A stretch of 63,610 nt of DNA, filler included, from Candidatus Woesearchaeota archaeon (GTDB lineage Archaea; Nanobdellota; Nanobdellia; Woesearchaeales; J072): the NCBI GenBank assembly GCA_003695265.1. It is 8 parts of 8 records of this genome, joined end to end, with 100 filler letters (N's around TTAATTAATTAA, not from the genome) between each part and the next. Parts side by side here need not be neighbours in the genome. Positions count along the whole stretch, not along the records: positions 12,288 to 36,480 come from RFII01000016.1; 7 more parts are not named here. One strand, written 5' to 3'. Of this stretch, positions 13,517 to 29,266 are shown in pieces (position 1 is the stretch's first letter; every line of letters starts with the position of its first letter). Under the pieces are notes generated by a model that searched no databases, was not told the origin of the DNA, and worked only from the letters and a program-made list of their open reading frames with translations. A program made the position numbers and the translations under genes.

Positions 13517-13550
13517 CAAAAACCCTGAGATGGGGGTGGAGGTGCTTAAC

Positions 13551-14159
13551 ATGAAAACACTAAAAAGAATAAAAAGCATAATAAGATCAGGAGTGATAAG
13601 TGCCCTGGTTGCGACCCTCTTAACAGCAACAACCGCGCATGCTTGGCAGAACATAACGCCAACATATAACATTAATCACAGGACAACACAAGTTAGGTTG
13701 CAGCACGGCACAGACAACTCTTATGCCTTTATCGACTTCAACGGCGATGAGCATGGAGACTTAGAAGGATTTTACGGAGAAGCATTAAGAACTGTGCCGT
13801 TAGCGTATGGGATCAGCGTCGGTCCTGAGTATAACGGCGGAACAGGCGTTGATGACATTGTCAGGGCGCAGATAACAGCATCCGGCCAAATAGGACCTGT
13901 CTTTGTGCAGGGAAAATACTCACCAGTCTCAACCGGCGATGCTGGACAGCAGCTCGGCCTCGTGGCTAATGCACAATTTGGAAGAGTTGGCCTTGGAACA
14001 TGGCTTGACATTGACTTCAATAATGGCCACACAGCAAAGTCAGGAGAGCTAGAAGCAACTCTCAAACTAACTGATAACGTCAAAGCTTATGGGAAAATGG
14101 AAAAGTTTGACTGGCAGAAAAGCCCAAGCTACTCAATAGGCTTCCAGGCAGACTTTTAA
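13551..14159 (+). CDS. Secreted protein resembling an outer-membrane beta-barrel (DUF5020/Tsx-like)
   Basis: GGAGGTG RBS; Sec signal ending AHA; amphipathic strands YAFIDF, GFYGE, EYNGG; C-terminal YSIGFQADF. Confidence 0.6.
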   Translation: MKTLKRIKSIIRSGVISALVATLLTATTAHAWQNITPTYNINHRTTQVRLQHGTDNSYAFIDFNGDEHGDLEGFYGEALRTVPLAYGISVGPEYNGGTGVDDIVRAQITASGQIGPVFVQGKYSPVSTGDAGQQLGLVANAQFGRVGLGTWLDIDFNNGHTAKSGELEATLKLTDNVKAYGKMEKFDWQKSPSYSIGFQADF

Positions 14160-14217
14160 TTCTTTTGTTTCTTTATTTATGGCAACCTTTAAATAACAAT
14201 AATGCGTGCATCAATTA

Positions 14218-15153
14218 ATGACAACCATTGTTGTTGCATTAGGCGGAAACGCATTGCTCAAAAAAGGGCAGAAATTCACGATTAAGGACAGCTTCAAGAA
14301 TATTTCTCCTGCTCTTGATTCTATAATCCCATTAATCAAGAAAGGGTTTAATGTTGTGATTACGCACGGCAACGGCCCACAAGTAGGAAACCAGCTGATA
14401 AGAGTAGAGCATTCTATAAACAAGGCATATTACCTTCCATTGTATGTGTGCGGAGCCCAAACCCAAGGCGAGATAGGCTACATGATTCAACAGTGTTTAC
14501 TCAACAAGCTGAAAGAAAACAACATAAAAAAGAACGCTGTCTGCGTTCTAACGCAAGTCCTAGTTGACAAAAACGACCTTTCATTTAAAAAGCCTACAAA
14601 GCCCATAGGCCCCTTTTACACAAAAGAGCAGCTTAAGGAGCTTGGCAAAGAAGACTGGAACTTAATCGAAGATGCTGGAAGAGGCTACAGGAGGGTTGTT
14701 GCTTCACCAAAGCCAAAAGAAATTATAGAGAAGGACATAATAAAAAAGCTTGTTGAGTCAGGAACAATAGTAATTGCTGTTGGCGGCGGAGGAATACCAG
14801 TCTATCTGAATGAGGAAAACGAATTGAGGGGTATAAGCGCAGTAATTGACAAGGATTTGGCCTCTGCATGCCTTGCTAACGAGCTAAAAGCGGAAATGCT
14901 CCTTATATTGACTGACGTTGAATGCGTTTTCTTGAATTACGGCAAAGAAAACGAGGAAAAAATATCAAGAATCAATGTTGCACAAGCAGAATTATACCTC
15001 AATCAAGGCCACTTCGCAGAGGGCAGCATGAAGCCAAAAGTAGAGGCAGCAATAAGTTTCCTGAAGAAAGGAGGCGAAAAAGCAATAATAACAAACCTTG
15101 AATCAGTAGAAGAAGCGCTTCAGGGAGAAAAAGGAACTATAATAACAAAATGA
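14218..15153 (+). CDS. arcC: Carbamate kinase
   Basis: VALGGNAL, THGNGPQVG, PTKPIGPFY, GGGGIPV, VIDKD, GSMKPK. Confidence 0.96.
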   Translation: MTTIVVALGGNALLKKGQKFTIKDSFKNISPALDSIIPLIKKGFNVVITHGNGPQVGNQLIRVEHSINKAYYLPLYVCGAQTQGEIGYMIQQCLLNKLKENNIKKNAVCVLTQVLVDKNDLSFKKPTKPIGPFYTKEQLKELGKEDWNLIEDAGRGYRRVVASPKPKEIIEKDIIKKLVESGTIVIAVGGGGIPVYLNEENELRGISAVIDKDLASACLANELKAEMLLILTDVECVFLNYGKENEEKISRINVAQAELYLNQGHFAEGSMKPKVEAAISFLKKGGEKAIITNLESVEEALQGEKGTIITK

Positions 15154-16970: not shown

Positions 16971-17476
16971 CTGCCAGAAGCAACACTTAGGATGTGCTTT
17001 ACCAATAAAAAGAAGATCAATATCAGAAAGAACATTATTATAGCGGCAAAGATTGTTATATTATCAAAAGGTATTTCTGTGTAAGAGTAAACGACTACCA
17101 AGTAAGCCAAATAATTTAAAGGAAGCTTTGAGGATATCCTGAAAGCAATAAACTGTGGTATCATATGGAAGAAATCAAAAAAAGCCAGTATGAAACTAAA
17201 AAATATTAACAGGATTGGAATAACAGTTTTAAGTGAGGAGATTGTAAGAACTCCTGTGATTGACTGATACCTTAATATGCTCGCGCCAACAAAGATTAGA
17301 ACCATACTGTTTCCAAGAGCGGTGTTCCAACCTAATTCCTCATCCCTGTTCCTGGCGAAATAAAGCTCCATTACAAACATGGTAATGAAGAGAGGAATTA
17401 TCTCCCAAAGAGTGATAGGGTTAGAAAGTGGAACTTGAAGAAGCTCGACCATTCTGGGAAAAATTATTTCAAACAT
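16967..17476 (-). CDS. Hypothetical polytopic membrane protein
   Basis: About five hydrophobic segments; [11 protein letters not shown]. Confidence 0.6.
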
Positions 17477-17537
17477 AAAAGAAAAAAGTAGTATTCTCGT
17501 ATTTATATTTAACTAAGTTTAATTTAACTAATTTTGA

Positions 17538-18527
17538 TTAACTTAATATTTCAATTCTTGCGCTTTCCCTCAGCTTAGCAACGTAGTTCTGATACGCCTC
17601 TTTCTGCTTTTCGATTAGCAAAGCCTTTCTAATCTGCTCTTCAACTTCGTCAAAAGACTGCTGCCTTCCCTCCTTTTTGTCAGTAAGCCTGATGACATGC
17701 CACCCAAACTGTGTTTGGACAGGCTCAGAAGTTTCATTCACTTCCAAGGCAAAGGCTGCCTCTTCAAACGGTTTTACCATCTCCCCTCTTCCAAAATATC
17801 CGAGGTCGCCCCCACGCACCCTACTCGGCCCTATTGACATGTTTGCGGCAACATCCTCAAATTTTTCACCGTTGTTAAGCCTTTCAATTGCTTTTTCTGC
17901 TTCTTCTTTCGTCTTTACAAGAATGTGGCTTGCTCTAACCTGCATGCCTGTCTTGAACATGTCTGCGTTTTCAATGTAATAATCCTCGACTTCGTCATCA
18001 CCCACAGAAATGTTGCCTAAAACAGTCTGGTTTAATAGGAGGACTATTGATATCTGTTTTTTATAGAAATTCTTGACATCATCTAAAGTAAGGTTCTTTT
18101 GTGAGAGAGCTTCCTCAAACTGAGACAAAGTAATGTTGTTGGCTGCTATTGCTTTGTTTATTATATTGTCAAGCTCCTCTTCAGGAACATTTATGCCCAT
18201 TTTTTCAGCTTTTTGCATTAGTAAAAGCTCGTCAATTATTTGGTTCAGAAGATCATCTTTTGAGATTATGTTCTTATAGCTTGGAGGTAGCTGTGCGTAC
18301 TGCGCGTCAACATCAGAAGCAAAAATTGGTTCTCCATTAACAATGGCAAGAATTTTGTTCGCGGAATCCTCTGTAGAGTTTGCAATGCTTTTTCCAGTAT
18401 TTTCTCCATGCGTCCTACTAAGAACAATGAACGCTGTGGCGATTATTATTACTGTAAGGGCGGCAAGCCCGACCATGACATAATTATTCCTCTTTGAAGT
18501 TTTTTTCCTTGAAGATTTCTTAACCAT
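17538..18527 (-). CDS. Membrane-anchored SurA/PrsA-like parvulin peptidyl-prolyl isomerase
   Basis: N-terminal TM; AIVNGEPI (SurA_N-like); RASHILV, GGDLGYF, F..AAF, TQFGWHVI. Confidence 0.9.
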   Translation of the reverse strand: MVKKSSRKKTSKRNNYVMVGLAALTVIIIATAFIVLSRTHGENTGKSIANSTEDSANKILAIVNGEPIFASDVDAQYAQLPPSYKNIISKDDLLNQIIDELLLMQKAEKMGINVPEEELDNIINKAIAANNITLSQFEEALSQKNLTLDDVKNFYKKQISIVLLLNQTVLGNISVGDDEVEDYYIENADMFKTGMQVRASHILVKTKEEAEKAIERLNNGEKFEDVAANMSIGPSRVRGGDLGYFGRGEMVKPFEEAAFALEVNETSEPVQTQFGWHVIRLTDKKEGRQQSFDEVEEQIRKALLIEKQKEAYQNYVAKLRESARIEILS

Positions 18528-18660
18528 CAGTATTACCCCCAAAGCACTCAGTAATAAAAGGTGATTAATAAATGTTATGGAAAACAATTTCATAACAACT
18601 AGGCACAATTTAGCAGTCCAATCGATTAATATTTAAATGAGTTAAGGCTGTGTAATAAGC

Positions 18661-19980
18661 ATGTTTGACATCATAATTGGTAGAAGTGAAAAAGACCGTG
18701 AAAAATATGGAAAAGCCGGAGCCACTTTTATAGGTAGGCAGTATGTCAAAATGGGCCGCACTACTTCCCTCTCCAACAATGTTTACTTGGATGTTGCAGG
18801 CTCGCACGTGGTTTTTGTCGTTGGGAAAAGAGGCTCTGGAAAGTCTTACACTATGGGCGTTATTTGTGAGGGAATGGCAAGCTTGCCTGAAGAAGTCTCA
18901 AAAAACATTTCAGTTATTATGCTTGACACAATGGGAATTTATTGGACCATGAAATATCCGAACAAAAGAGATGAGCTGTTGCTGAATGAGTGGGGCCTTA
19001 AAGGGCAAGGATTAGATGTGGTCATTTACACCCCTGTAATACATCATGAAGAATACAAGAGGAGAGGAATCCCAACAGATAAGCCTTTCTCAATAAGCCC
19101 TGCAGAGCTTAGCGCAGCTGACTGGTGCCTTAGCTTTGAGATAAAGCAGACAGAGCCTGTCGGCGTCTTGATTGAGAGAGTTATTGAGGGTTTGAAGGAG
19201 AAGAAAAAGGTGTTTGATATTGATGATATAATAAAAGAAATCAGGAAAGACACAAAATCAGAGAATGTTGTGAAGAATGCTGCTGAGAACCGTTTTGTCA
19301 CAGCAAAAAAATGGGGTGTTTTCGCAAAGGAAGGAACTCCAATAAAAGACCTTGCTGTTGGAGGAAAAGTCAGCGTTCTTGATGTTAGCTGCTACGCGAC
19401 TGAGCCGAATGGATGGAAAATAAAGTCACTTGTTGTCGGCTTAATATCACAGAAACTATTCATTCAGCGCATGGAAGCTAGAAAATCTGAGGAAAGAGAA
19501 GAGGTTGAGGACTCACTAAGGTATTTTGCTGAGGAAAAAGAAGAGGGGCAAAAAACTCCTTTGGTGTGGCTTATAATAGATGAGGCTCATGAGTTTCTGC
19601 CCCGTGAGGGAAAAACAACGGCAAGTGATGCCCTAATCACAATCCTGAGAGAGGGCAGGCAGCCGGGAATATCTTTGATACTTGCGTCTCAGCAGCCCGG
19701 CAAGATTCACACAGATGTCATGACGCAGGCAGATACTGTCATCGCACATAGGATAACAGCAAAGCTTGACGTGGATGCTCTCGGCCTGTTGATGCAGAGC
19801 TACATGAGGGAAGGGCTGACAGAGCAGCTTGACAACCTTCCCCGCGTAAAAGGATCTGCAATAATTTTTGATGACACAAATGAGAGGATGTACCCTTTGA
19901 GGATAAGGCCTCGGTTTACTTGGCATGGAGGCGGCTCTCCTACTGCAATGGCAAAAAAGAAGGAGAAAAGTGGATTATAA
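18661..19980 (+). CDS. HerA/DUF87-family P-loop ATPase
   Basis: Walker A GKRGSGKS, Walker B LIIDEAH, REGR.PG, ASQQP. Confidence 0.85.
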   Translation: MFDIIIGRSEKDREKYGKAGATFIGRQYVKMGRTTSLSNNVYLDVAGSHVVFVVGKRGSGKSYTMGVICEGMASLPEEVSKNISVIMLDTMGIYWTMKYPNKRDELLLNEWGLKGQGLDVVIYTPVIHHEEYKRRGIPTDKPFSISPAELSAADWCLSFEIKQTEPVGVLIERVIEGLKEKKKVFDIDDIIKEIRKDTKSENVVKNAAENRFVTAKKWGVFAKEGTPIKDLAVGGKVSVLDVSCYATEPNGWKIKSLVVGLISQKLFIQRMEARKSEEREEVEDSLRYFAEEKEEGQKTPLVWLIIDEAHEFLPREGKTTASDALITILREGRQPGISLILASQQPGKIHTDVMTQADTVIAHRITAKLDVDALGLLMQSYMREGLTEQLDNLPRVKGSAIIFDDTNERMYPLRIRPRFTWHGGGSPTAMAKKKEKSGL

Positions 19981-20037
19981 ACCGTTTCGGTGTTATTTGC
20001 AAAACTTTTATAAAAAATTAAAACATATTATTGTTTA

Positions 20038-20343
20038 ATGGTGTTTGGCAAAAGCTTTCCGAGAACTAGTGAAAAAAGCTCTTACCCTGTGTGGGAGGAA
20101 ATATTCTTGACAGAGGAAGAGGAGAGAGAGGAAGAAAGAAAAGCAAGGGAAGAGAACGTAAAGTTGATGAAAGAATGCATTGATGATGCTAGAACAATTA
20201 TAAAAGATAAAGGAATGAAAGGTTTTGAGACGAGCATTATCAATGTTGCAATAGCGTTGTTTGAGAAGCGGGCTTCTCACCAGGTTTTCTGGAAGGAAAG
20301 CAAGTGCAAGGAAAAGTTTGATGCAAAAAAATTGAAGGATTAA
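20038..20343 (+). CDS. Hypothetical protein
   Basis: Own TATA upstream; helical charged 101-aa ORF. Confidence 0.6.
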   Translation: MVFGKSFPRTSEKSSYPVWEEIFLTEEEEREEERKAREENVKLMKECIDDARTIIKDKGMKGFETSIINVAIALFEKRASHQVFWKESKCKEKFDAKKLKD

Positions 20344-20370
20344 TAAAACAACCAGGCAAAACAAGAATAA

Positions 20371-21408
20371 TCAATAAATTTCATGCTTTGGGTCCCGCGC
20401 CATGAATTCCTTATAAGCATCTATTGGGGATTTTCCTTCAAACAGTATTTGGTGCATTTTCTCTGTTATAGGCATTTCAAAAGGAAGGCTTCTTTGAAGC
20501 TCATAAACAGCCCTCGTCGTTTCAACACCCTCTGGAACCATTCCGTTAAGCAACACATTTATTTCTTCCAATGATTTTCCTTCAGAAATTAATTGGCCTA
20601 CGCGCCTGTTCCTTCCGTGCCTGCTGTAGCACGTTACGATAAGGTCGCCTGAACCTGCAAGGCCGTTAAAAGTCCTTTCTTCTCCTCCAAGATGTGTTCC
20701 CAGGCGTGTCATCTCAACCTTTCCGCGCTCGATCAACGCTGCTTTTGAATTATCGCCTAGAATGCCTCGCTCAATGTAGCCGTCAACGATTCCTGCTGCT
20801 ATTGCAATCACGTTTTTCAGCGCTGCTGCGATCTCAACGCCAATGACATCGTAAGAGGTGTAAACACGAAAATAGGAATTATTATTGAATGTTAGCTGGA
20901 CTTGTTTTGCTAGATCCTTGTTAGTTGAGGCTGCCACTACCAAAGTTGGTATTTCTCTACCAACTTCTTCGGCATGGCTTGGTCCTGAAATAACAGAAAT
21001 GTGATTATTATCAATACGCAATTCTTCTTTTAGCACTTCTGTTACTCTCTTAAAACTCTTAATTTCCATTCCCTTAGAAGCGCTGCAAAAATAGGCGTTA
21101 GGGCTGGCAATCCCTTTCATCTGCCTGAACACACGCCTTGAAAACTGCGTCGGCACAACAGTAACTATTAATTCTGCGTCACTGCAGATTTCTTCAAGAG
21201 AACTGCTTATTACAACGTGCTTTGGAATCTGAACGCCAGGAAGGTATTTCGGGTTTTGGTGTGATATTCTCATAATTTCAACAAGAGGGGACTCGCCGTA
21301 CATGTCTCCTTCCCAAACCCACAAGCCAACGTTTTTATGCTTGAAAGCAAGCGTTTTGGTGAGCGCTGTCCCCCAGCTTCCACCCCCTATAACAGCTATC
21401 TTTGACAT
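20371..21408 (-). CDS. gpsA: NAD(P)H-dependent sn-glycerol-3-phosphate dehydrogenase (bacterial type)
   Basis: GGGSWGTAL, SKG, SGPSHAEEV, LKNVIAIAAG, GLAG.GDL.VTC.S..GRN. Confidence 0.95.
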   Translation of the reverse strand: MSKIAVIGGGSWGTALTKTLAFKHKNVGLWVWEGDMYGESPLVEIMRISHQNPKYLPGVQIPKHVVISSSLEEICSDAELIVTVVPTQFSRRVFRQMKGIASPNAYFCSASKGMEIKSFKRVTEVLKEELRIDNNHISVISGPSHAEEVGREIPTLVVAASTNKDLAKQVQLTFNNNSYFRVYTSYDVIGVEIAAALKNVIAIAAGIVDGYIERGILGDNSKAALIERGKVEMTRLGTHLGGEERTFNGLAGSGDLIVTCYSRHGRNRRVGQLISEGKSLEEINVLLNGMVPEGVETTRAVYELQRSLPFEMPITEKMHQILFEGKSPIDAYKEFMARDPKHEIY

Positions 21409-21410
21409 TT

Positions 21411-22724
21411 TTACGTGTGATGCCTTATGGTGTTGGCATAATAAATTATTATTTTTGGCTCAACAACACAGTACTGTTTTTCTGCTCCTCCCTCATTGGA
21501 TGGTCTTATAAATTTTTGTTTAACAAAAGGCCGCAATCCTTCTTCAATAACAAGGAGCAGATTATTTTCAAGCCTTGGATCCATCCTGACTCCTACATTG
21601 TTAAAATGGTCTATTAGCCTTGCGGCTTCATCATAAAGCCAAGATTCGGAGACTGTGAATCCAGGGTAAATATTCCTGCTTAACCCTAATATATTGCCGA
21701 TTGCTGCCGCAACTAAAGCAGACGGATTAACAGCCACCGCTTCCTTTATCCCCTCAATAAAATGTTTGGCGACGTTTTTGGACAAGTCTCTTTGATTAGT
21801 GCTTTTCTGCTCGCTTAAATAATCTCCTAATGAATAGGGGCTACCGAATGAAACAAGAAGGTTGTTGCCTGGTGTGAAAAAATCCCTTAGGTTACCAAAT
21901 CTAGCCATAATTCCGTTCTGCATGCTTTTCGCAGTGTCAAGGGCAAAAAACGGCGCTTCTGGAACAAAATCATAGCTTATCGCCACTGGCACAACGTAAA
22001 TGTCAGCGCCATTCTGCTGCGCTGCAATAACCGAATCAATAAGGCCTCTTTTTGGAACAAGCACTTTTCCTGACCTGCTTCTCGTGCCCTCTGGAAAAAT
22101 TGCCATGTGAATGCCTTTCTCCAGAGCTGTTTTTGCGTATTCTGCAAGAACTTTCAAGTAAAGGATGTCTCTTGTATTGCCCCTATCAACTGTGTAAGCG
22201 TTCCATCCCTTTAGCGTTCTGCTAATGATTGGATTGGCAAAAAGGTTCAGCCCTGCTGCAAAGGATGGGATGTCCATTCCATTAGTCCCAAGCTTCCATC
22301 CCAAGAACATATAATCCAAATGGCTTAAGTGCCTCACCATGTAAACAAGTGTTTTATCCTTGTGCTGTTGGACTTTTTCAAGGCCAAGCGTTGAACCACC
22401 GCTAAACATGCTGTGAAAATACGCTGAGACAAAAATTTTGCCCAGCGCAGTAAGGGCCCTGCTCGGATTCCAGGCTATTTGGTCAGCGTAGAACTCTGCC
22501 TGCCTTCTGATAAGTTCTTCATTTATTTCTTCCTCGTTTATTTCTCCATGAAGAATAGTTTCCAGTGTTTGGCTGCTCAGCCCTTTGAAGACCTTTTCTC
22601 TTTTCTTCTCAGCCATTCCGGAGATACTTCTAGCAACGCAGCCGCGAAACCTTGTAATATCGTTTTCAGAGAACACTTTACTAACGACTATTTCCATTAA
22701 TTCCTCACGAGATATATCAAGCAT
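21411..22724 (-). CDS. Glycerol-3-phosphate/DHAP acyltransferase (PlsB/GPAT-like)
   Basis: HX4D motif HLSHLD, AAGLNL, FPEGTRSRSG, VPVAISYD. Confidence 0.85.
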   Translation of the reverse strand: MLDISREELMEIVVSKVFSENDITRFRGCVARSISGMAEKKREKVFKGLSSQTLETILHGEINEEEINEELIRRQAEFYADQIAWNPSRALTALGKIFVSAYFHSMFSGGSTLGLEKVQQHKDKTLVYMVRHLSHLDYMFLGWKLGTNGMDIPSFAAGLNLFANPIISRTLKGWNAYTVDRGNTRDILYLKVLAEYAKTALEKGIHMAIFPEGTRSRSGKVLVPKRGLIDSVIAAQQNGADIYVVPVAISYDFVPEAPFFALDTAKSMQNGIMARFGNLRDFFTPGNNLLVSFGSPYSLGDYLSEQKSTNQRDLSKNVAKHFIEGIKEAVAVNPSALVAAAIGNILGLSRNIYPGFTVSESWLYDEAARLIDHFNNVGVRMDPRLENNLLLVIEEGLRPFVKQKFIRPSNEGGAEKQYCVVEPKIIIYYANTIRHHT

Positions 22725-22774
22725 GAATGACGAGAAAAAAAAAGTTTATTTAAAAGTTTCTGCCAAAAAAGATG

Positions 22775-23086
22775 TTATTTTCTTTTTTTCCCTTCTTTTT
22801 TCTTTTCTCTGCCTTTCGGTCTTTTCTTCTTGACAATAACAATCTTATGCTTTGGAGAATTCAGTTTTCTTCTCACAACTCTTGTCTTTGCGAAGTCTGC
22901 TGCCAGCTCTGCTTCTACAGGGGCGTGAGTCATTGAAATCATCGAAGCAAAGAACATCAGCGCAAATATTAGGCAGATTGCAAATCCAAACGGCTTTGAC
23001 ATAGGCCAGATGACAATAGCGCTGAAGAAGAAGCCGAGCATGCTTGCCAGCATGTATAAACGGGATAATGGATAAAAGCCTGCCAA
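22775..23086 (-). CDS. Small 2-TM membrane protein with basic tail
   Basis: Two hydrophobic helices; GAGGTGG RBS upstream. Confidence 0.6.
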   Translation of the reverse strand: MAGFYPLSRLYMLASMLGFFFSAIVIWPMSKPFGFAICLIFALMFFASMISMTHAPVEAELAADFAKTRVVRRKLNSPKHKIVIVKKKRPKGREKKKEGKKRK

Positions 23087-23144
23087 TTAAACCACCTCTT
23101 TTGTGAATATTACTTTGTTCTTTTTCTTATTTAAAATTATCCTT

Positions 23145-23234
23145 TTTTAGGGTGATGCCAACTTGATTATGATAAGCTTTTGTGCATAGGTGGTGCGGGC
23201 GGGACTAAGCATTGTAATATTCCAGCACAACAAA
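23145..23234 (+). repeat. Dispersed intergenic repeat, copy A
   Basis: Colinear blocks shared with the reverse complement of 50845-50952. Confidence 0.65.
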
Positions 23235-23280
23235 ATAGGTTTAACACTTTTTTTACAAGAGACGTAGCCACTTTCAACCC

Positions 23281-24363
23281 TTATTTAACAAACTTCAGGT
23301 TAGGAACTAGTTTCTTTGCTTCTCTCACTTTTTTGTTAAAGTTTTGCATGAATTCGACCATTTTTTGGCAGGCGATTTCCTTTATTTCTCCTGAGGTCAT
23401 TCTTCCTGCCTTGTACTCGTCATGAATTCTCTGAAGCTCTGAATCATCCTCGATGAGGTGCTGCTTTAGCAGCTCGAACACCATGTCTTTTTCGATTATT
23501 GCGCCTAGCCTGCGGTGCTCTTCAAGAGTGTCTCTGCCTCCTGTGAGAGCCCTCTTAATTTTTTTACATACAGACTTCTCGTCTTCTGGAAGCTCTATGC
23601 ATGACTCTGGCTTTGACTTTGACATTTTTATAGAGCCATCTAAGGAAGGTGTGTATTTGTGGAATATTGAGCTTGGCAACACGAAGTTTCTTGATTTCAT
23701 CCTATTAACAATATCCCTTGTTAAGAGAATATGTGGCACTTGGTCGACGCCGACAGGAATCACTCCAGGCATTCTCTTCTTGAACTGAGGGTAAAGAATG
23801 TCTCCAACCTGAGTGCATGCCGCGAATATCCTGCCCGGCTCTGCATTTCCGTAAAGCGCCTTGAACTGGTTTAATGTTACTTTTCTGGCAAAAAGCGACG
23901 CAGACCTCATAACTTCGACGTTTTCTGACTGGAAGTAAAACGTTGTTTTTTCAGGGTCTAATCCAAGCGCTATATAGGCAGGAATATGAAAGTTTAACGC
24001 CCTTTTTCTTGCTTCTTCCAGAGAAATCCCCCTCGTGGCTTCTGCTTCAAGGTCTGCTATGAGAATGTACGTTTCTGCCCCAAATTTCTGGAAATAGGCA
24101 ATGTTCTCGACAACCATTTTATTGCCGAAATGAATCTTGTCCGCGGTTGGCATTATGCCGCTTAGAACGTAGAACGGCTTTTTGTTTTTCATCGCATCCA
24201 ATAATGTTTTCTGTCCTATTCCTGAGAACACTACGCCACGCCTCATAATCCTGTTCGGGCTTGGAAACTTATCCAGCATGAATTGTTCTAGGTGAAAGTC
24301 TGTGATCAGCTTTGCATAATCCTCCACTAATTTGCTCCCCCAGGGATCAATGATTTTTGCCAT
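23281..24363 (-). CDS. trpS: Tryptophanyl-tRNA synthetase (archaeal type)
   Basis: IDPWGS, HFGN, PVGVDQ.PH, KMSKS, ALTGGR. Confidence 0.95.
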   Translation of the reverse strand: MAKIIDPWGSKLVEDYAKLITDFHLEQFMLDKFPSPNRIMRRGVVFSGIGQKTLLDAMKNKKPFYVLSGIMPTADKIHFGNKMVVENIAYFQKFGAETYILIADLEAEATRGISLEEARKRALNFHIPAYIALGLDPEKTTFYFQSENVEVMRSASLFARKVTLNQFKALYGNAEPGRIFAACTQVGDILYPQFKKRMPGVIPVGVDQVPHILLTRDIVNRMKSRNFVLPSSIFHKYTPSLDGSIKMSKSKPESCIELPEDEKSVCKKIKRALTGGRDTLEEHRRLGAIIEKDMVFELLKQHLIEDDSELQRIHDEYKAGRMTSGEIKEIACQKMVEFMQNFNKKVREAKKLVPNLKFVK

Positions 24364-24467
24364 TGCTAGAAGTCAGGCTGGAATTTATTTAAAGCTTTTC
24401 ATTTTTCCAGTTAAATTACTACTTTAGAATAGAAAAATATAAATTAAAGACGATAATAATATCAAGT

Positions 24468-25244
24468 ATGAAACTTCATGAATTAATTGAAGAGGTATTG
24501 AATGCACAAAAATGCTTTGAAGAAAGGAAGGAAAGGCTGAGAGAAGCCCTTAAAAAAGCAGTTGGAGAGCACATAGACTCTGTTTTTGATAATAGGCCTA
24601 TGCCTGAAGCATTAAGACTGGCAGAAAGCCTTGAAAGCATAGTATTTGGCCAGGAGACCGCGAAAGGAATCGGCTCTGGTTCTTATTGCCGCATAAAGAA
24701 TTATGTGTTAAACACTTATAATCCTGGAGATTATTTCAGCACAGCCGATGTTGCTAAAGGTGTTGGGTTCCATAGAGATACTGTAAGAAGAGCTTTAAGA
24801 AGAATGAGAAATGTGAAATACGTTGATTCTGAGAGGAGATGGCTATTAAGGGTTGAGCTTGACAGCAAAGCAATATTCTCTGCAGCAAGAAATCTTATAA
24901 GAAAACAGGGTTACGCGACTGCACGGGAAATAACAAGCATGCTTGGTTACGGAAATGTAGAAGTGTTCCATGTTGGGAGAATAATCTCTCAAGCGCATGA
25001 AGAGCAGGGTTGGGACAGGAAACTGACAAAGGAAGGTTACGCGTATTTCCCAAAAGGAAAGAATCCAATAATAACTCCGCGCGGGAAAGTGCTCCGGGCA
25101 ATAGGAAGAAGACAGAGAGTTTACGTTCATGATGTTGCGGAGCAGACAGGCTTGACACCGCTAAGCGTGACGAGAGTTCTTTCTAATGATGACAGGTTTA
25201 AAAGAGGCCGCAGCTCAGAGGGGGTTTATTATCAAAGGAAATAA
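24468..25244 (+). CDS. Hypothetical protein with tandem winged-HTH-like repeats
   Basis: FSTADVAKGVG..RDTVRRAL; TAREIT; VHDVAEQTGLTPLSVTRVL. Confidence 0.55.
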   Translation: MKLHELIEEVLNAQKCFEERKERLREALKKAVGEHIDSVFDNRPMPEALRLAESLESIVFGQETAKGIGSGSYCRIKNYVLNTYNPGDYFSTADVAKGVGFHRDTVRRALRRMRNVKYVDSERRWLLRVELDSKAIFSAARNLIRKQGYATAREITSMLGYGNVEVFHVGRIISQAHEEQGWDRKLTKEGYAYFPKGKNPIITPRGKVLRAIGRRQRVYVHDVAEQTGLTPLSVTRVLSNDDRFKRGRSSEGVYYQRK

Positions 25245-25300
25245 ATAGAATAATTTAAATAGGTAATCACACAATATTTCTTTAAACGAGGTGATTCATC

Positions 25301-25498
25301 ATGTGCTTATGCGAGAAATGCACTAAAACATGCGGCGTTGTTTTCTTGATTGTTGGCATTTTGTTTTTGCTGAAGGACTTTGGCATATGGGATTTTTGGA
25401 ATATTAATTGGTGGACTGCAGTCTTCTTAATATTAGGCTTGGGCGCTTTTTGCTCTACAGGGTGCCCTGAGTGCAAGGCGTTGCACAAAAAGAAATAA
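25301..25498 (+). CDS. Small membrane protein with flanking Cys pairs (DUF5668-like)
   Basis: GILFLLKDFGIWDFW; CxxC at both ends; GAGGTGAT RBS. Confidence 0.65.
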   Translation: MCLCEKCTKTCGVVFLIVGILFLLKDFGIWDFWNINWWTAVFLILGLGAFCSTGCPECKALHKKK

Positions 25499-25528
25499 TT
25501 TAAATAGATTCAATTTTATTTTTTTATT

Positions 25529-26410
25529 ATGAAGCACAGTATTAAAATAACAGCGTTTCTCTTGCTTGTTTTTCTCGCGTCACAGCTTGTTGGTTTGCTC
25601 ATCATAAACAACTATGTTGATAAGGAGCAGACTAAGAGAAGCTTTGAGGAAACAGGGCAATACAAAGTTGTTTACAAGCCCCTCCCATACAACGTTGAAA
25701 GACCTGAAGTTGACGAATCAACATCATTCATTCCCATAATCATCGCAATACTTGTGGGAACCTCGCTTTTCCTGTTGCTAATGAGGTTTAAGAAAGTCAG
25801 TGTTTGGAAGGCTTGGTACTTCCTAAGCGTGTTTCTGTGCATGACAATAGCGTTAGCTGCTTTTCTTCCGCAAGCAATAGCTTTAGTAATCTCAGCGGTT
25901 TCTTCTTTTTTCAAGACAGCAAAGCCCAATGTGGTTGTTCACAACTTAACAGAGATTTTTATTTACGGCGGCTTAGCAGCCATATTTGTTCCTATTATTA
26001 ATATGTTTTCTGCAATTGCTCTTCTCATAATAATCTCTGTTTATGACATGATTGCTGTTTGGAAGAGCAAGCACATGGTGAAGATGGCTAAGTTTCAGTC
26101 AAAGACAAAGATTTTCGCAGGCCTGTTTATTCCATACAAAAAAGCTCCAAAGCCTAAAAAAGGCGCGAAAACAATAAGGGTTCCTGTCAAGAACGCTGTT
26201 CTAGGCGGCGGCGACATCGCATTCCCGTTAATATTTGCAGGTGTTGTTATGAAGCAGTTCAGCTTTGCGCAAACACTGATTATTCCTGTTTTTGTAACGC
26301 TTGCCCTGCTTATTCTGTTCATAAAAGCTGAGAAAGACAAGTTTTATCCTGCAATGCCTTTTGTCACAGCAGGGTGCATCCTAGGGTATTTTGCTATCTT
26401 ACTAATTTAG
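25529..26410 (+). CDS. Presenilin/SPP-family intramembrane aspartyl protease
   Basis: YD (SVYDM), GxGD (LGGGD), PAL-like PAMP. Confidence 0.9.
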   Translation: MKHSIKITAFLLLVFLASQLVGLLIINNYVDKEQTKRSFEETGQYKVVYKPLPYNVERPEVDESTSFIPIIIAILVGTSLFLLLMRFKKVSVWKAWYFLSVFLCMTIALAAFLPQAIALVISAVSSFFKTAKPNVVVHNLTEIFIYGGLAAIFVPIINMFSAIALLIIISVYDMIAVWKSKHMVKMAKFQSKTKIFAGLFIPYKKAPKPKKGAKTIRVPVKNAVLGGGDIAFPLIFAGVVMKQFSFAQTLIIPVFVTLALLILFIKAEKDKFYPAMPFVTAGCILGYFAILLI

Positions 26411-27219
26411 AAACCTTTAAGAGTCTTCTGCCTGACAGAAGAGGCAAATGTCATTGGATTCAAAACCAATCCGTCTTTTGCTGCGAGTACGTGCGTGGAA
26501 GTCTGCTTTGATATTTCCCTTGCTTCATACAATGGGTCTGCCTGGTGCATTTTTATCCCAAAATGGGTGATTACAGCGTGCTTAGGCTTTGCCTCGTTGA
26601 TTAGCTTTACTGCATCTTCAGAATTCATGTGGTTCTTTTCTTTTATGTGAAATGGGTTCACCACGTTTATTATTAACAGGTCTGTTTCCTTAAACTCTTC
26701 AGCTAATTCCTTGAAGTATTCTGTGTCGGAAGTGTAGCCCAGAGTGAATTTTGGAGCAAAGAATTTGAAGCCAACTGCATGAGGGTCGTTGTGTCGTGTT
26801 GGCGTGGCTTTTATTTCTATCTCATTTATAGCGATTTTTTGCCCTGCCTCAACCGCGATAGCCCTTTCAACCAAGCGCTTATAGTATTCTGTCATAACAG
26901 GCTTCATTGTTTCAATGCCGTTGTAGGCTGTTTTGTTGGTTATGACAACGCCTTTCTTGTCAAAGCCGTTATGGGTCATTGCGGATATGAGCGCGTTGAT
27001 GTCATTGCAGTGGTTAAGGTGGTTGTGAGAAACAAAGATGGCAGTGTTGTGCCTTGGATTAATGTCAGCAATTCTCGCCCTTACAACTGCTCCTGGTCCG
27101 GGATCAATGTGAAATTGGTTGCCCTCAGCCTGAAGAACAATGCCGCCAGAAGCCCTTAATTGCTGGCCTGTAACAAAAATGTCTCCGCCTGTGCCTAGAA
27201 ATATTACTCTCGGATCCAT
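26407..27219 (-). CDS. Metallo-beta-lactamase fold hydrolase
   Basis: FLGTGG, IDPGPG, SHNHLNH, YTSDT, THFG. Confidence 0.88.
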   Translation of the reverse strand: MDPRVIFLGTGGDIFVTGQQLRASGGIVLQAEGNQFHIDPGPGAVVRARIADINPRHNTAIFVSHNHLNHCNDINALISAMTHNGFDKKGVVITNKTAYNGIETMKPVMTEYYKRLVERAIAVEAGQKIAINEIEIKATPTRHNDPHAVGFKFFAPKFTLGYTSDTEYFKELAEEFKETDLLIINVVNPFHIKEKNHMNSEDAVKLINEAKPKHAVITHFGIKMHQADPLYEAREISKQTSTHVLAAKDGLVLNPMTFASSVRQKTLKGF

Positions 27220-27354
27220 CTTACCCCCAAGGATTACATAGGCAAGGATATATTTAAGGGTTTCGTAAAAGATGATAAGATTAAGATGTAAAGAAAATAA
27301 TTTTTTCTCACGATTTATAGAAAACTTTAAAAGAATAAGATTATTCTATCGTGC

Positions 27355-27631
27355 CGGCAGGCTAGGCCGGGTGGTCAGCCCTCACCTGTTACCGCAAACG
27401 GGCTTTACGGCGGGGCTGAAGCTTTGGAAGAGGCTCATTGCTTTGCCGTTGGTCTCAGCTTGGACGATGAGGTTCTGTCCCATTGGGCTTGTTTTTTCGG
27501 GAAATGAGTCAGGTCAGGAATGAAGCAGCTCTAACTGATTAAACAGGCGCTTTTGGGGTAGCGGAGCTAAGGACAGGCTGGGGTTAAGCCAATGGCTCGG
27601 CTTTGAGTCCATTCCTGGGCGCGCCTGCCGC
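27355..27631 (+). ncRNA. ffs: Signal recognition particle RNA (7S)
   Basis: 5' GCUAGGCCGG Alu start; helix 8 GAG-UCAGG-UCA-GGAA-UGA-AGCAG-CUC; terminal GGCAGG/CCUGCC pairing. Confidence 0.93.
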
Positions 27632-27694
27632 TTTTCTTGAAAGATTTCTAATTATTTATTAACAAATATTGCTTCAAAATTGATTTCTTCAGCT

Positions 27695-29266
27695 TTAAGA
27701 AACATGAAACCCAACGCTCACATTAAGGAGTATTGGCGAGTAGCTTGGGTCTTGTGTTGTGAGGCTCGCATTTATCTGGAAGTACCTGCCTGTGACTCCT
27801 GTAAGTGTTTTTAGTGAGCTGTTTGTCAAGGAGCCTGCCCATGGCTCTGTATCGCATAAGGGATCATCACATGACCTATATTGAAGAGTTAGGTTCATTA
27901 TTGCCCTTTTGTAAATGCTCAGCGCTTCAGAGCCCTGCAGTGTTCTGTTCCATATTGCAAGCTCGTCTATCAGGCCGGAATAGTCTTTGCTCATGTCATC
28001 CTTTATTCCTATGTACAAAGGATCATTGCTTTGCTTGAAGGCAAACCCCGACTTGGAAGATGTGCCTTTCTGCGTTCCGTTTATGTAAATAATGCCTTCC
28101 CCTGCTGATGACACCGTACAAGCAACAAAAACCCAGTCTGTGGAAGAAAGAGGCGCTTTCGGCTTCACGTCTCCGCTAACGTCATTTTTGAACTTGCATT
28201 CTATCTCGTTATTTTTTATTTTTACCTCTATGTTGTTTTTTTTGAAAAAAACCCTTTGGTCTGTTGCCAAGTCATTCGGCTTTATCCAGAAAGAGACTGT
28301 CGCGTTTGTAGTCAATGTGGCAAATGATGCGCTGTCCAAAACTTTAACGTAAACGTCGCTGCCGCTGAAATCAAGCGCTGTGCCAAGCTTTCCCTGTGCG
28401 CCGAAGCCGATGCTTCCAAACGCATCACCGTGATTTGCGCTGCCTGAAAAGTCTTCTACGTCGCTTCCGCTGGGGCCTTGGCCTGCTGACTGCTCGTTCA
28501 TGTGCATTAAAAGAATGTTTCCGGACATGTCTGCTCCTGCATCGCTTCCAGCATTGTTAGGAAGTTCTTCCCCGTAAGGCAGCGCTTCTCCAAAGCTTAT
28601 GTTAAGCCAGCTCGTGCTTGTTGCGTTCGAGTCATTAGTGTTGAGGTAGCTTCCTGCCAAAGCTCCTGAGAGCTCGACTTGGTCGCCGTTTGAGTAAGTG
28701 TTTGTGAATGAGCCTGTGTCAAACTCTGCTTCAGAATCCAAAACCCATGAGTAGCTTCCTGCCTGGTTGCTTTCATTACTGCCATTTCCACCCAGGTTGG
28801 TATTGGCCACTGTGCCAACAATTTTTTTCTTGCCTGTAAACTCGTATGTTCCTCCTGTCTTTATATCCCTATAGGTTATTCTTACATCATAACTGAAATC
28901 ATCGCTGAGAGCCTCGCCCAGAGAGCCTGTGATAGCTCCTTTTCCGCCAATGCTTAAAGGATAATTCCCCGACCACACAGTCTTATTGCCAAATTCAATT
29001 TTTGTAATGGTTATTGGCTGAGGATTATTATTCATAACGTTCAGAACCACATTCCCAGCACTGTCAATAGACCATGTTGTTAAGCCGATGTCAGCGCTGC
29101 TCCAGTAGGCCTTAGAGACCCTCACATCAGCGTTGCCGCCGATCCAGGGAATTCCGCCAATGGCTGCGACAACAATAACAGCAACAAGCAGAACAATAGA
29201 TGCAGTGATTAGGTATTCGGTGGAAGTCTGAGCTCTTTTCTTGCAAAGAAAATAATTATAATTCAT
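27695..29266 (-). CDS. Type IV pilin-like protein (class III signal peptide) with LamG domain
   Basis: KKRA|QTSTEY plus hydrophobic helix; LamG motifs TVSFWIKP, GLIDELAIWNRTL. Confidence 0.8.
   Translation of the reverse strand: MNYNYFLCKKRAQTSTEYLITASIVLLVAVIVVAAIGGIPWIGGNADVRVSKAYWSSADIGLTTWSIDSAGNVVLNVMNNNPQPITITKIEFGNKTVWSGNYPLSIGGKGAITGSLGEALSDDFSYDVRITYRDIKTGGTYEFTGKKKIVGTVANTNLGGNGSNESNQAGSYSWVLDSEAEFDTGSFTNTYSNGDQVELSGALAGSYLNTNDSNATSTSWLNISFGEALPYGEELPNNAGSDAGADMSGNILLMHMNEQSAGQGPSGSDVEDFSGSANHGDAFGSIGFGAQGKLGTALDFSGSDVYVKVLDSASFATLTTNATVSFWIKPNDLATDQRVFFKKNNIEVKIKNNEIECKFKNDVSGDVKPKAPLSSTDWVFVACTVSSAGEGIIYINGTQKGTSSKSGFAFKQSNDPLYIGIKDDMSKDYSGLIDELAIWNRTLQGSEALSIYKRAIMNLTLQYRSCDDPLCDTEPWAGSLTNSSLKTLTGVTGRYFQINASLTTQDPSYSPILLNVSVGFHVS

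Follow-up and report, generated by a model that had tools for sequence, protein, structure and literature searches.

How would an archaeon come to start its glycerolipids in the bacterial manner? The question is raised by a pair of genes in a 63,610-nucleotide stretch of DNA (hereafter the window) from a Candidatus Woesearchaeota archaeon (assembly GCA_003695265.1), in which several contigs are joined. The pair lies on contig C61 (window positions 12288-36480) of a 1.06 Mb genome, designated G000, with a completeness of 94.6% and a contamination of 0.57%. The two genes encode a short acyltransferase of the PlsB/GPAT family and a GpsA-type glycerol-3-phosphate dehydrogenase. Judging from their sequences and from the other lipid genes of this genome, we consider it somewhat probable (about 0.55) that these enzymes start a bacterial-type synthesis of ester lipids, which CarS-like and CDP-alcohol transferases would finish to a phospholipid. 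This reading builds on gene identity, motifs, predicted fold, promoter position, synteny and gene inventory, from which activity, acceptor, sn-position and coenzyme are predicted. To our knowledge, self-made ester membranes of the bacterial type are not known from any archaeon, and how ether lipids gave way to ester lipids is still a gap in accounts of eukaryote origins. If the gene pair starts ester lipids, as is likely, this archaeon would stand across the 'lipid divide'.

A PlsB/GPAT-family acyltransferase coupled to GpsA

The pair consists of two minus-strand open reading frames (ORFs) at 21411-22724 (437 amino acids) and 20371-21408 (345 amino acids), separated by 2 nt, and all motifs named in a preliminary description of this DNA are present. 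The 437-residue protein scores above the cut-offs of PF01553 (72.6 bits) and GPAT_C (PF19277; 39 bits, cut-off 25) and carries the motifs HLSHLD (H132-D137), AAGLNL, FPEGTRSR (residues 210-217) and VPVAISY. Both the HX4D and the FxEGTRSR blocks are intact, and H132, D137, R181 and R215 are invariant in our alignment A1. Its best-scoring NCBIfam models are those of PlsB, with a match spanning model positions ~200-535 of ~800, but the score of 129-130 bits lies far below the cut-off of 610-618 for the PlsB equivalog (TIGR03703/NF003441). The best PDB match, both by sequence and by fold, is human GPAT1 (8e4y; Foldseek E 8.6e-19, TM-score 0.69), the structure model having a predicted local distance difference test score (pLDDT) of 83.9. 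No transmembrane helix is predicted (highest 19-residue hydropathy 1.67), and in trees the protein falls on the PlsB/GPAT side and not among PlsC. The PlsB-like identity proposed earlier is thus borne out by PF01553, GPAT_C, fold and motifs alike, and the enzyme probably resembles in kind the entry into bacterial phosphatidic-acid synthesis, without being a canonical PlsB and within an incomplete pathway.

To collect bacterial relatives, we derived sequence patterns from the window protein together with four close hits and scanned with them; of the 309 relatives returned, the 80 best were retained. These 80 come mostly from Myxococcota, Bdellovibrionota, Bacteroidia and Planctomycetota, a distribution biased by the patterns toward the Myxococcota/Bdellovibrionota-type family. 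In 72 of the 80 loci a same-strand gpsA lies directly downstream (71 within 100 bp or overlapping; the other eight loci were counted irrespective of contig ends). GPAT and dihydroxyacetone phosphate (DHAP) acyltransferases form one family, as described in a preprint (10.1101/2025.10.10.681575), and E. coli PlsB is strictly specific for sn-glycerol-3-phosphate (G3P; PMC13400652). The adjacency of gpsA in the window favours G3P over DHAP as the probable acceptor of the archaeal enzyme, as does the acyltransferase-gpsA order in the bacterial loci. The window enzyme was sister to the Myxococcota/Bdellovibrionota family with a support of 97 in a quick tree and 91/95 (unstarred) under a mixture model. 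This fork lost support once more archaeal rows were added, the sister position appearing in two of three trees. We found no characterisation of this short PlsB-like bacterial family in the literature, and a pattern scan of genome contigs with the single protein gave no match.

The second gene (20371-21408, minus strand) encodes a GpsA-type NAD(P)H-dependent glycerol-3-phosphate dehydrogenase, as originally proposed. It contains the N- and C-terminal NAD_Gly3P_dh domains, passes the subfamily cut-offs of NF000942 and NF000940, and carries GGGSWG (the GxGxWG start), SKG, ALKN and GDLIVTC. Coenzyme choice in these enzymes is linked to loop residues after strand 2. In the window protein this loop (WVWEGDMYGE) aligns with WVFEEDIGGK of the human NAD-linked GPD1 and lacks the basic residues of the bacterial NAD(P)-type (WARR in 1z82); given this GPD1-like loop, use of NADH is likely. 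The closest named relatives of the protein are bacterial (identity 45-49%). It clusters with two Poribacteria-cluster proteins (SH-aLRT support 98), apart from the gpsA of seven plsC-plsC-gpsA operons of related archaea and from the gpsA of the myxobacterial operons, and in metagenomes none of the 80 loci that carry the closest gpsA has an acyltransferase matching profile A1. Phylogenies of both proteins place the acyltransferase on the PlsB/GPAT side and GpsA with Poribacteria proteins. We considered whether the entire operon had come from the Myxococcota/Bdellovibrionota family, which is unsupported, since gpsA groups elsewhere; given this differing affinity, transfer as one unit is not shown, and convergent coupling or replacement in place fits equally well.

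Integrity of the locus and its promoter

The nearest named relatives of both proteins are bacterial, and a hit in the relative G224 resembles a bacterial contaminant, so we considered whether bacterial DNA had been joined onto an archaeal contig during assembly or binning. A contig of 10,617 bp from a public-run Logan assembly spans 17079-27695 with no differences and no joints, at an even depth of 14.4 that is similar to its neighbours (13-14.2); the run is possibly the source of the same DNA, so that it amounts to a reassembly rather than to independent evidence. Codon use is host-like: the G+C content at third codon positions is 0.40 and 0.41 for the two genes (genome 0.43 +/- 0.06), and their codon deviation stands at the 14th and 49th percentile of the genome. 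The preliminary description also pointed to archaeal rpoD, rpl18e and dnaG on contig C61. The dnaG scores above the cut-off of NF003108, which we take to be the archaeal-type DnaG model, whereas rpoD and rpl18e were identified by eye, without a profile test. An archaeal TATA box lies upstream, and the same trpS-herA slot holds such genes in 8 of 28 loci from six families, which argues against a chimera. No chimeric join was seen at the operon edges. We conclude that the locus belongs to an archaeon and is no chimera; an artefact, already largely refuted, is extremely improbable.

The TATA box TTTAAATA (22747-22754, minus strand) has its start 30 nt and its end 22 nt ahead of the acyltransferase ATG, confirming the distance given earlier. 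Of the 503 free upstream regions of the genome, 130 have such a box with its start 20-40 nt ahead of the ATG, compared with 13.6 in shuffles, and the box positions peak in the 30-34 bin (99 hits), where the box of the gene pair falls. The transcript is likely leaderless, with its start near the acyltransferase ATG. A scan for sigma-70 promoters and terminators gave counts at chance level.

Lipid genes of the genome

Lack of archaeal lipid synthesis, which the preliminary description gave as established for many DPANN archaea, fits the gene inventory of G000. EgsA-family proteins (PF13685), GGGPS (PF01884) and HMG-CoA reductase (PF00368) were not found in this genome, nor was DGGGPS, the lone UbiA protein scoring ~30 bits on DGGGPS models and 208 bits on its nearest family, decaprenyl-phosphate phosphoribosyltransferase. 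Dxr was likewise not found in G000. An IdsA-like prenyl diphosphate synthase cut by a contig end (C83:2959-3377) is present despite no match to HMG-CoA reductase or Dxr.

From the set egsA, GGGPS, DGGGPS, carS, plsC, cdsA and fadD, the genome search returned only a CarS-like gene, whose product scores 135.6 bits on NF003114 (cut-off 148) and 22 bits on the CdsA model. A CDP-alcohol transferase, nearest to archaetidylinositol-phosphate synthase, is encoded two genes from an alpha/beta hydrolase; the genome also has PLD-like and PAP2-like genes. Among archaeal genes lie an acetyl-CoA carboxylase (ACC) operon (C44:10984-16125) for biotin carboxylase, a fused AccA-AccD, a putative carrier protein (read by eye, without a profile match) and BirA, as well as a lone FabH (C23:6676-7740) and a lone FabF (C71:13105-14361), both above cut-off. 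Genes for beta-oxidation, Etf and GlpK were not found in G000. Its sole AMP-binding enzyme is an acetate-CoA ligase by profile, so that its candidacy as FadD was rejected. The earlier suggestion of ester lipids built from scavenged acyl-CoA is therefore met in part: the PlsB-like and GpsA genes are there, whereas for scavenging no FadD-type activating gene was found in G000.

The window acyltransferase is the single PF01553 match in G000. The same holds for 8 of the 10 genomes with a PlsB-like gene and a PF01553 match among the first 101 surveyed, so the missing PlsC is probably no assembly gap.

Distribution and genomic context in related archaea

We surveyed 101 genomes of the same order, including G000, and extended a PlsB-like profile search to 301 genomes. 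Among the 101 genomes, PF01553 occurs in 51, gpsA in 23, CTP_transf_1 in 52, a CDP-alcohol transferase in 57 and a FabF-like protein in 9. No convincing GGGPS was found in the 101 genomes (13 weak partial matches, best E 1e-5), and PF13685 occurs in 27 of them, unsorted between EgsA and related dehydrogenases or synthases. By hand count, PF01553 is present in 19 of 23 genomes with gpsA versus 32 of 78 others, the genomes being kin and not independent. In 7 of 22 gpsA loci of relatives the arrangement is plsC-plsC-gpsA. The coupled pair, which had been singled out as the notable point, is thus real but no one-genome rarity, with PF01553 in half of the surveyed genomes and bacterial lipid genes already published.

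A profile from 12 archaeal PlsB-like proteins matches 33 of 301 genomes; this tally contains the profile's own 12 rows, the contaminant-like G224 and the unpublished G120 and G111; without the last two it becomes 31 of 299. Leaving out G120, G111 and three genomes without a locus gives 28 loci. Eight of these, with six family codes, lie in one interval, which in the window is flanked upstream by a trpS for a tryptophanyl-tRNA synthetase-like protein (23281-24363, minus strand; PF00579, synteny) and a small conserved membrane protein (22775-23086, minus strand) whose homologues adjoin trpS or herA in many related genomes. Downstream it is flanked by a convergent gene for a conserved hypothetical protein of 101 residues (20038-20343, plus strand; Atlas clusters, synteny) and a HerA-like ATPase (18661-19980, plus strand; PF01935). 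Atlas clusters resembling the 101-residue protein are 70-100% Archaea, Ca. Woesearchaeota being their commonest phylum, which together with the gene content makes Woesearchaeales the most likely assignment of the DNA. HerA is matched in 93 of 101 same-order genomes. Behind the PlsB-like gene, gpsA stands in tandem in four of the 28 loci and convergently in one; a FabF-like gene adjoins it in two.

The PlsB-like family has been kept across many families at ~20-28% identity, with the H, D and R residues conserved. In the HerA tree, G000, G021 and G076 are not grouped. The approximately unbiased (AU) test rejected a single recent clade of slot-borne genes (p 0.009) and likewise a clade uniting all 26 archaeal rows (p 0.034). 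A clade of 24 rows, with G143 and G103 removed after the tree had been viewed, was not rejected (p 0.20); long branches weaken all of these tests. The simplest reading, though not a proven one, is that the PlsB-like gene has long resided in the order and was lost or relocated many times.

Several further arrangements were seen in relatives. Highly divergent GpsA-like proteins of 447-462 residues occupy the slot in G021 (L198:9874-11217), G003 (L333:746-2116) and G061 (L337:1506-2894, at a contig end beside herA); two lack a clear GxGxWG start, and a single-protein search missed them. In G092 (L204:6111-9777) a tandem FabF-like gene and gpsA converge on the PlsB-like gene, and G076 (L307) has a divergent FabF/FabH pair. 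The separate-lineage PlsB-like genes of G143 (L105) and G103 (L106) follow an ORF resembling lactate racemase by eye, that of G143 being near AcpS and a desaturase-like ORF. Electron-transfer-flavoprotein genes precede plsC-plsC-gpsA, and a ribosomal-protein-like gene follows it, in L010, L012 and L013, while L009 has a FabG-like gene upstream. Frames of 820-877 residues in G019, G001, G068 and G056 (L051, L054, L055 and L058) join AMP-binding and acyltransferase parts as Aas-like fusions, and in G011 (L056) a carrier-like segment precedes the acyltransferase. The stretch of G224 noted above (L104, G224:C53) has a high-GC, actinobacterial-looking plsC/plsB arrangement within an archaeal genome and is probably contamination.

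In the wider neighbourhood the window encodes a SurA/PrsA-like rotamase (17538-18608, minus strand), a presenilin-like protease (25529-26410, plus strand) and a pilin-like protein that contains a LamG domain (27695-29266, minus strand). A secreted-looking protein of 209 residues (13530-14159, plus strand), whose alternating residues and C-terminal Phe recall a bacterial outer-membrane beta-barrel, has no NCBIfam or Pfam match; similar ORFs occur near herA in L339 and L370. It is followed at 14206-15153 (plus strand) by an amino-acid-kinase-family protein, carbamate-kinase-like by eye.

Proposed pathway and alternatives

In the pathway that we favour, GpsA would reduce DHAP to G3P, probably using NADH as coenzyme. 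The acyltransferase would then move an acyl chain from acyl-CoA onto G3P to yield lysophosphatidic acid (LPA). A CarS-like cytidylyltransferase and a CDP-alcohol phosphotransferase would complete the phospholipid, replacing the archaeal ether route. Candidate acyl donors are a host-derived acyl thioester or the product of a carrier-less ACC/FabH/FabF route for which the reductive steps were not found in G000. The second acylation could fall to the same enzyme or to an unrecognised one, or the lyso-lipid may be the end product. A fuller version, in which an old trpS-herA resident serves self-made G3P ester membranes through carrier-less ACC/FabH/FabF acyl-CoA, a dual-acylating PlsB or lysolipids, and a re-purposed CarS, is speculative and on present evidence unlikely.

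Several findings weigh against the favoured pathway. PlsC, PlsY, PlsX and CdsA were not found in G000 at its 94.6% completeness, nor were FadD, ACP, AcpS, FabD, FabG/FabI and FabZ; with no PlsC, FadD, ACP or reductive steps, a diacyl product and a long acyl donor are unaccounted for. The CarS of A. fulgidus strongly prefers digeranylgeranylglyceryl phosphate (DGGGP) over phosphatidic acid and fails to complement cdsA (PMC9385802). G021, a genome of 100% completeness, has the pair and no match to a CarS-like protein or a CDP-alcohol transferase. In 23 of the 28 PlsB-like loci no gpsA lies within ~1.5 kb, and the distribution is patchy, G076 retaining only a remnant in the slot.

That G000 and 8 of 10 PlsB-like genomes each have a lone PF01553 gene could also point to an enzyme that remodels host lysolipids, a use with which the alpha/beta hydrolase near the CDP-alcohol transferase, the PLD-like and PAP2-like genes and the NAD-type coenzyme loop of GpsA are compatible. 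Woesearchaeia have been suggested to modify host lipids (PMC11868695), and mycobacterial PlsB2 also acylates 2-acyl-LPA (PMC10593935). However, the enzyme groups with GPAT/PlsB-type and not with PlsC-type proteins, its coupling to gpsA recurs in bacteria and relatives, and ACC, FabH and FabF indicate acyl synthesis; remodelling is a tentative and rather unlikely explanation. The missing reductive steps of fatty acid synthesis in G000 would suit a minor compound made from acyl-G3P or acyl-DHAP, such as a lysolipid, a glycolipid precursor, a protein anchor, or an unreduced short or beta-keto ester formed via ACC/FabH/FabF. GPAT and DHAP acyltransferases belong to the same family, G021 has no matches for CDP activation, and in G018 and G145 the PlsB-like gene adjoins glycosyltransferase-like and deacetylase-like genes (by eye) instead of gpsA. 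Since gpsA adjacency points to G3P rather than DHAP, and G000 has CarS-like and CDP-alcohol transferases, no alternative way of forming a lipid backbone being detected, we regard a minor product as improbable.

The incomplete fatty-acid gene set could instead mean that a host-dependent lineage is losing a bacterial lipid pathway, the pair being an intact yet dispensable relic of it. The remnant in G076 occupies the same slot, and the slot lacks these genes in most relatives (either gene is present in 2 of 40 loci picked by HerA, from 40 of the 93 matching genomes). Yet catalytic motifs, full lengths and promoter are all intact, and the PlsB-like genes have been retained in many families at such low identity with their H, D and R residues; we regard a relic as quite improbable. 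Initiation of ester-lipid synthesis by the gene pair remains our preferred reading. A PlsB-type enzyme and GpsA, both soluble or peripheral, in a genome without the sn-glycerol-1-phosphate route can be assayed directly, as can the CarS-like enzyme. This makes it testable whether an archaeon can cross the lipid divide, whether one acyltransferase can carry out both acylation steps, and whether the cells live on bacteria.

Comparison with known systems

Bacterial lipid genes in Woesearchaeota are already known. The parts seen of PMC6431249 report GpsA in Woesearchaeota and PlsC/PlsY in DPANN bins and name no archaeal PlsB, and those of PMC8204110 describe G3P dehydrogenase and fatty-acid genes near genes of the methylerythritol phosphate (MEP) pathway. 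Parts 1 and 3 of a supplementary figure of the latter list a plsB ring whose marks are unreadable as text, so the figure may already show PlsB in DPANN. Woesearchaeota are usually deemed unable to make lipids, with no GGGPS or DGGGPS (PMC8421398), and the supplement rows seen of that paper list PlsC and no plsB term. Excerpts of other papers report FabG/I/Z and cyclopropane synthases in Woesearchaeota (PMC10936187), bacterial-like lipids as the alternative to host-lipid modification in Woesearchaeia (PMC11868695) and lysolipids in small-cell fractions (PMC7242380); related work includes PMC13473441, PMC7414124 and PMC13014828. In the titles, abstract starts and passages covered, we found no published description of an operon of a PlsB-family gene and gpsA in archaea. 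What is new is the PlsB-family variant, its conserved slot and its usually standing alone.

Like the E. coli GpsA/PlsB/PlsC/CdsA pathway, the window combines GpsA with a PlsB-family enzyme bearing HX4D, FxEGTRSR and part of GPAT_C. The archaeal enzyme, however, has 437 residues and 130 bits, compared with 807 residues for PlsB and a threshold of 610 bits, and occurs in an archaeon with no detected PlsC, CdsA, ACP or FadD, with a CarS-like enzyme and with an archaeal promoter. Human GPAT1/GNPAT provide the top solved-structure match by sequence and fold; the archaeal enzyme differs from them by its shorter C-terminal part and the lack of a predicted transmembrane pair, and its acceptor is suggested by gene context. 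The operon of Myxococcota, Bdellovibrionota and some Bacteroidia and Planctomycetota shares the AAGLNLFANP and AYTVDR signatures and the gene order, whereas identity is ~25-30%, the archaeal FPEGTR has Glu where the bacterial motif reads FPGGTR, and the archaeal gpsA groups with Poribacteria proteins instead of the operon gpsA. The PlsC/PlsY homologues of Marine Group II/III, Asgard and DPANN archaea resemble the present case as bacterial acyltransferases in archaea (PMC6431249). The plsC-plsC-gpsA operon of Woesearchaeales differs in its locus, in having two PlsC-type genes instead of one PlsB-type gene, and in its gpsA, from which the window gpsA forms a separate clade; it shares with the window the lack of GGGPS, the same order and the coupling of gpsA to acyltransferases.

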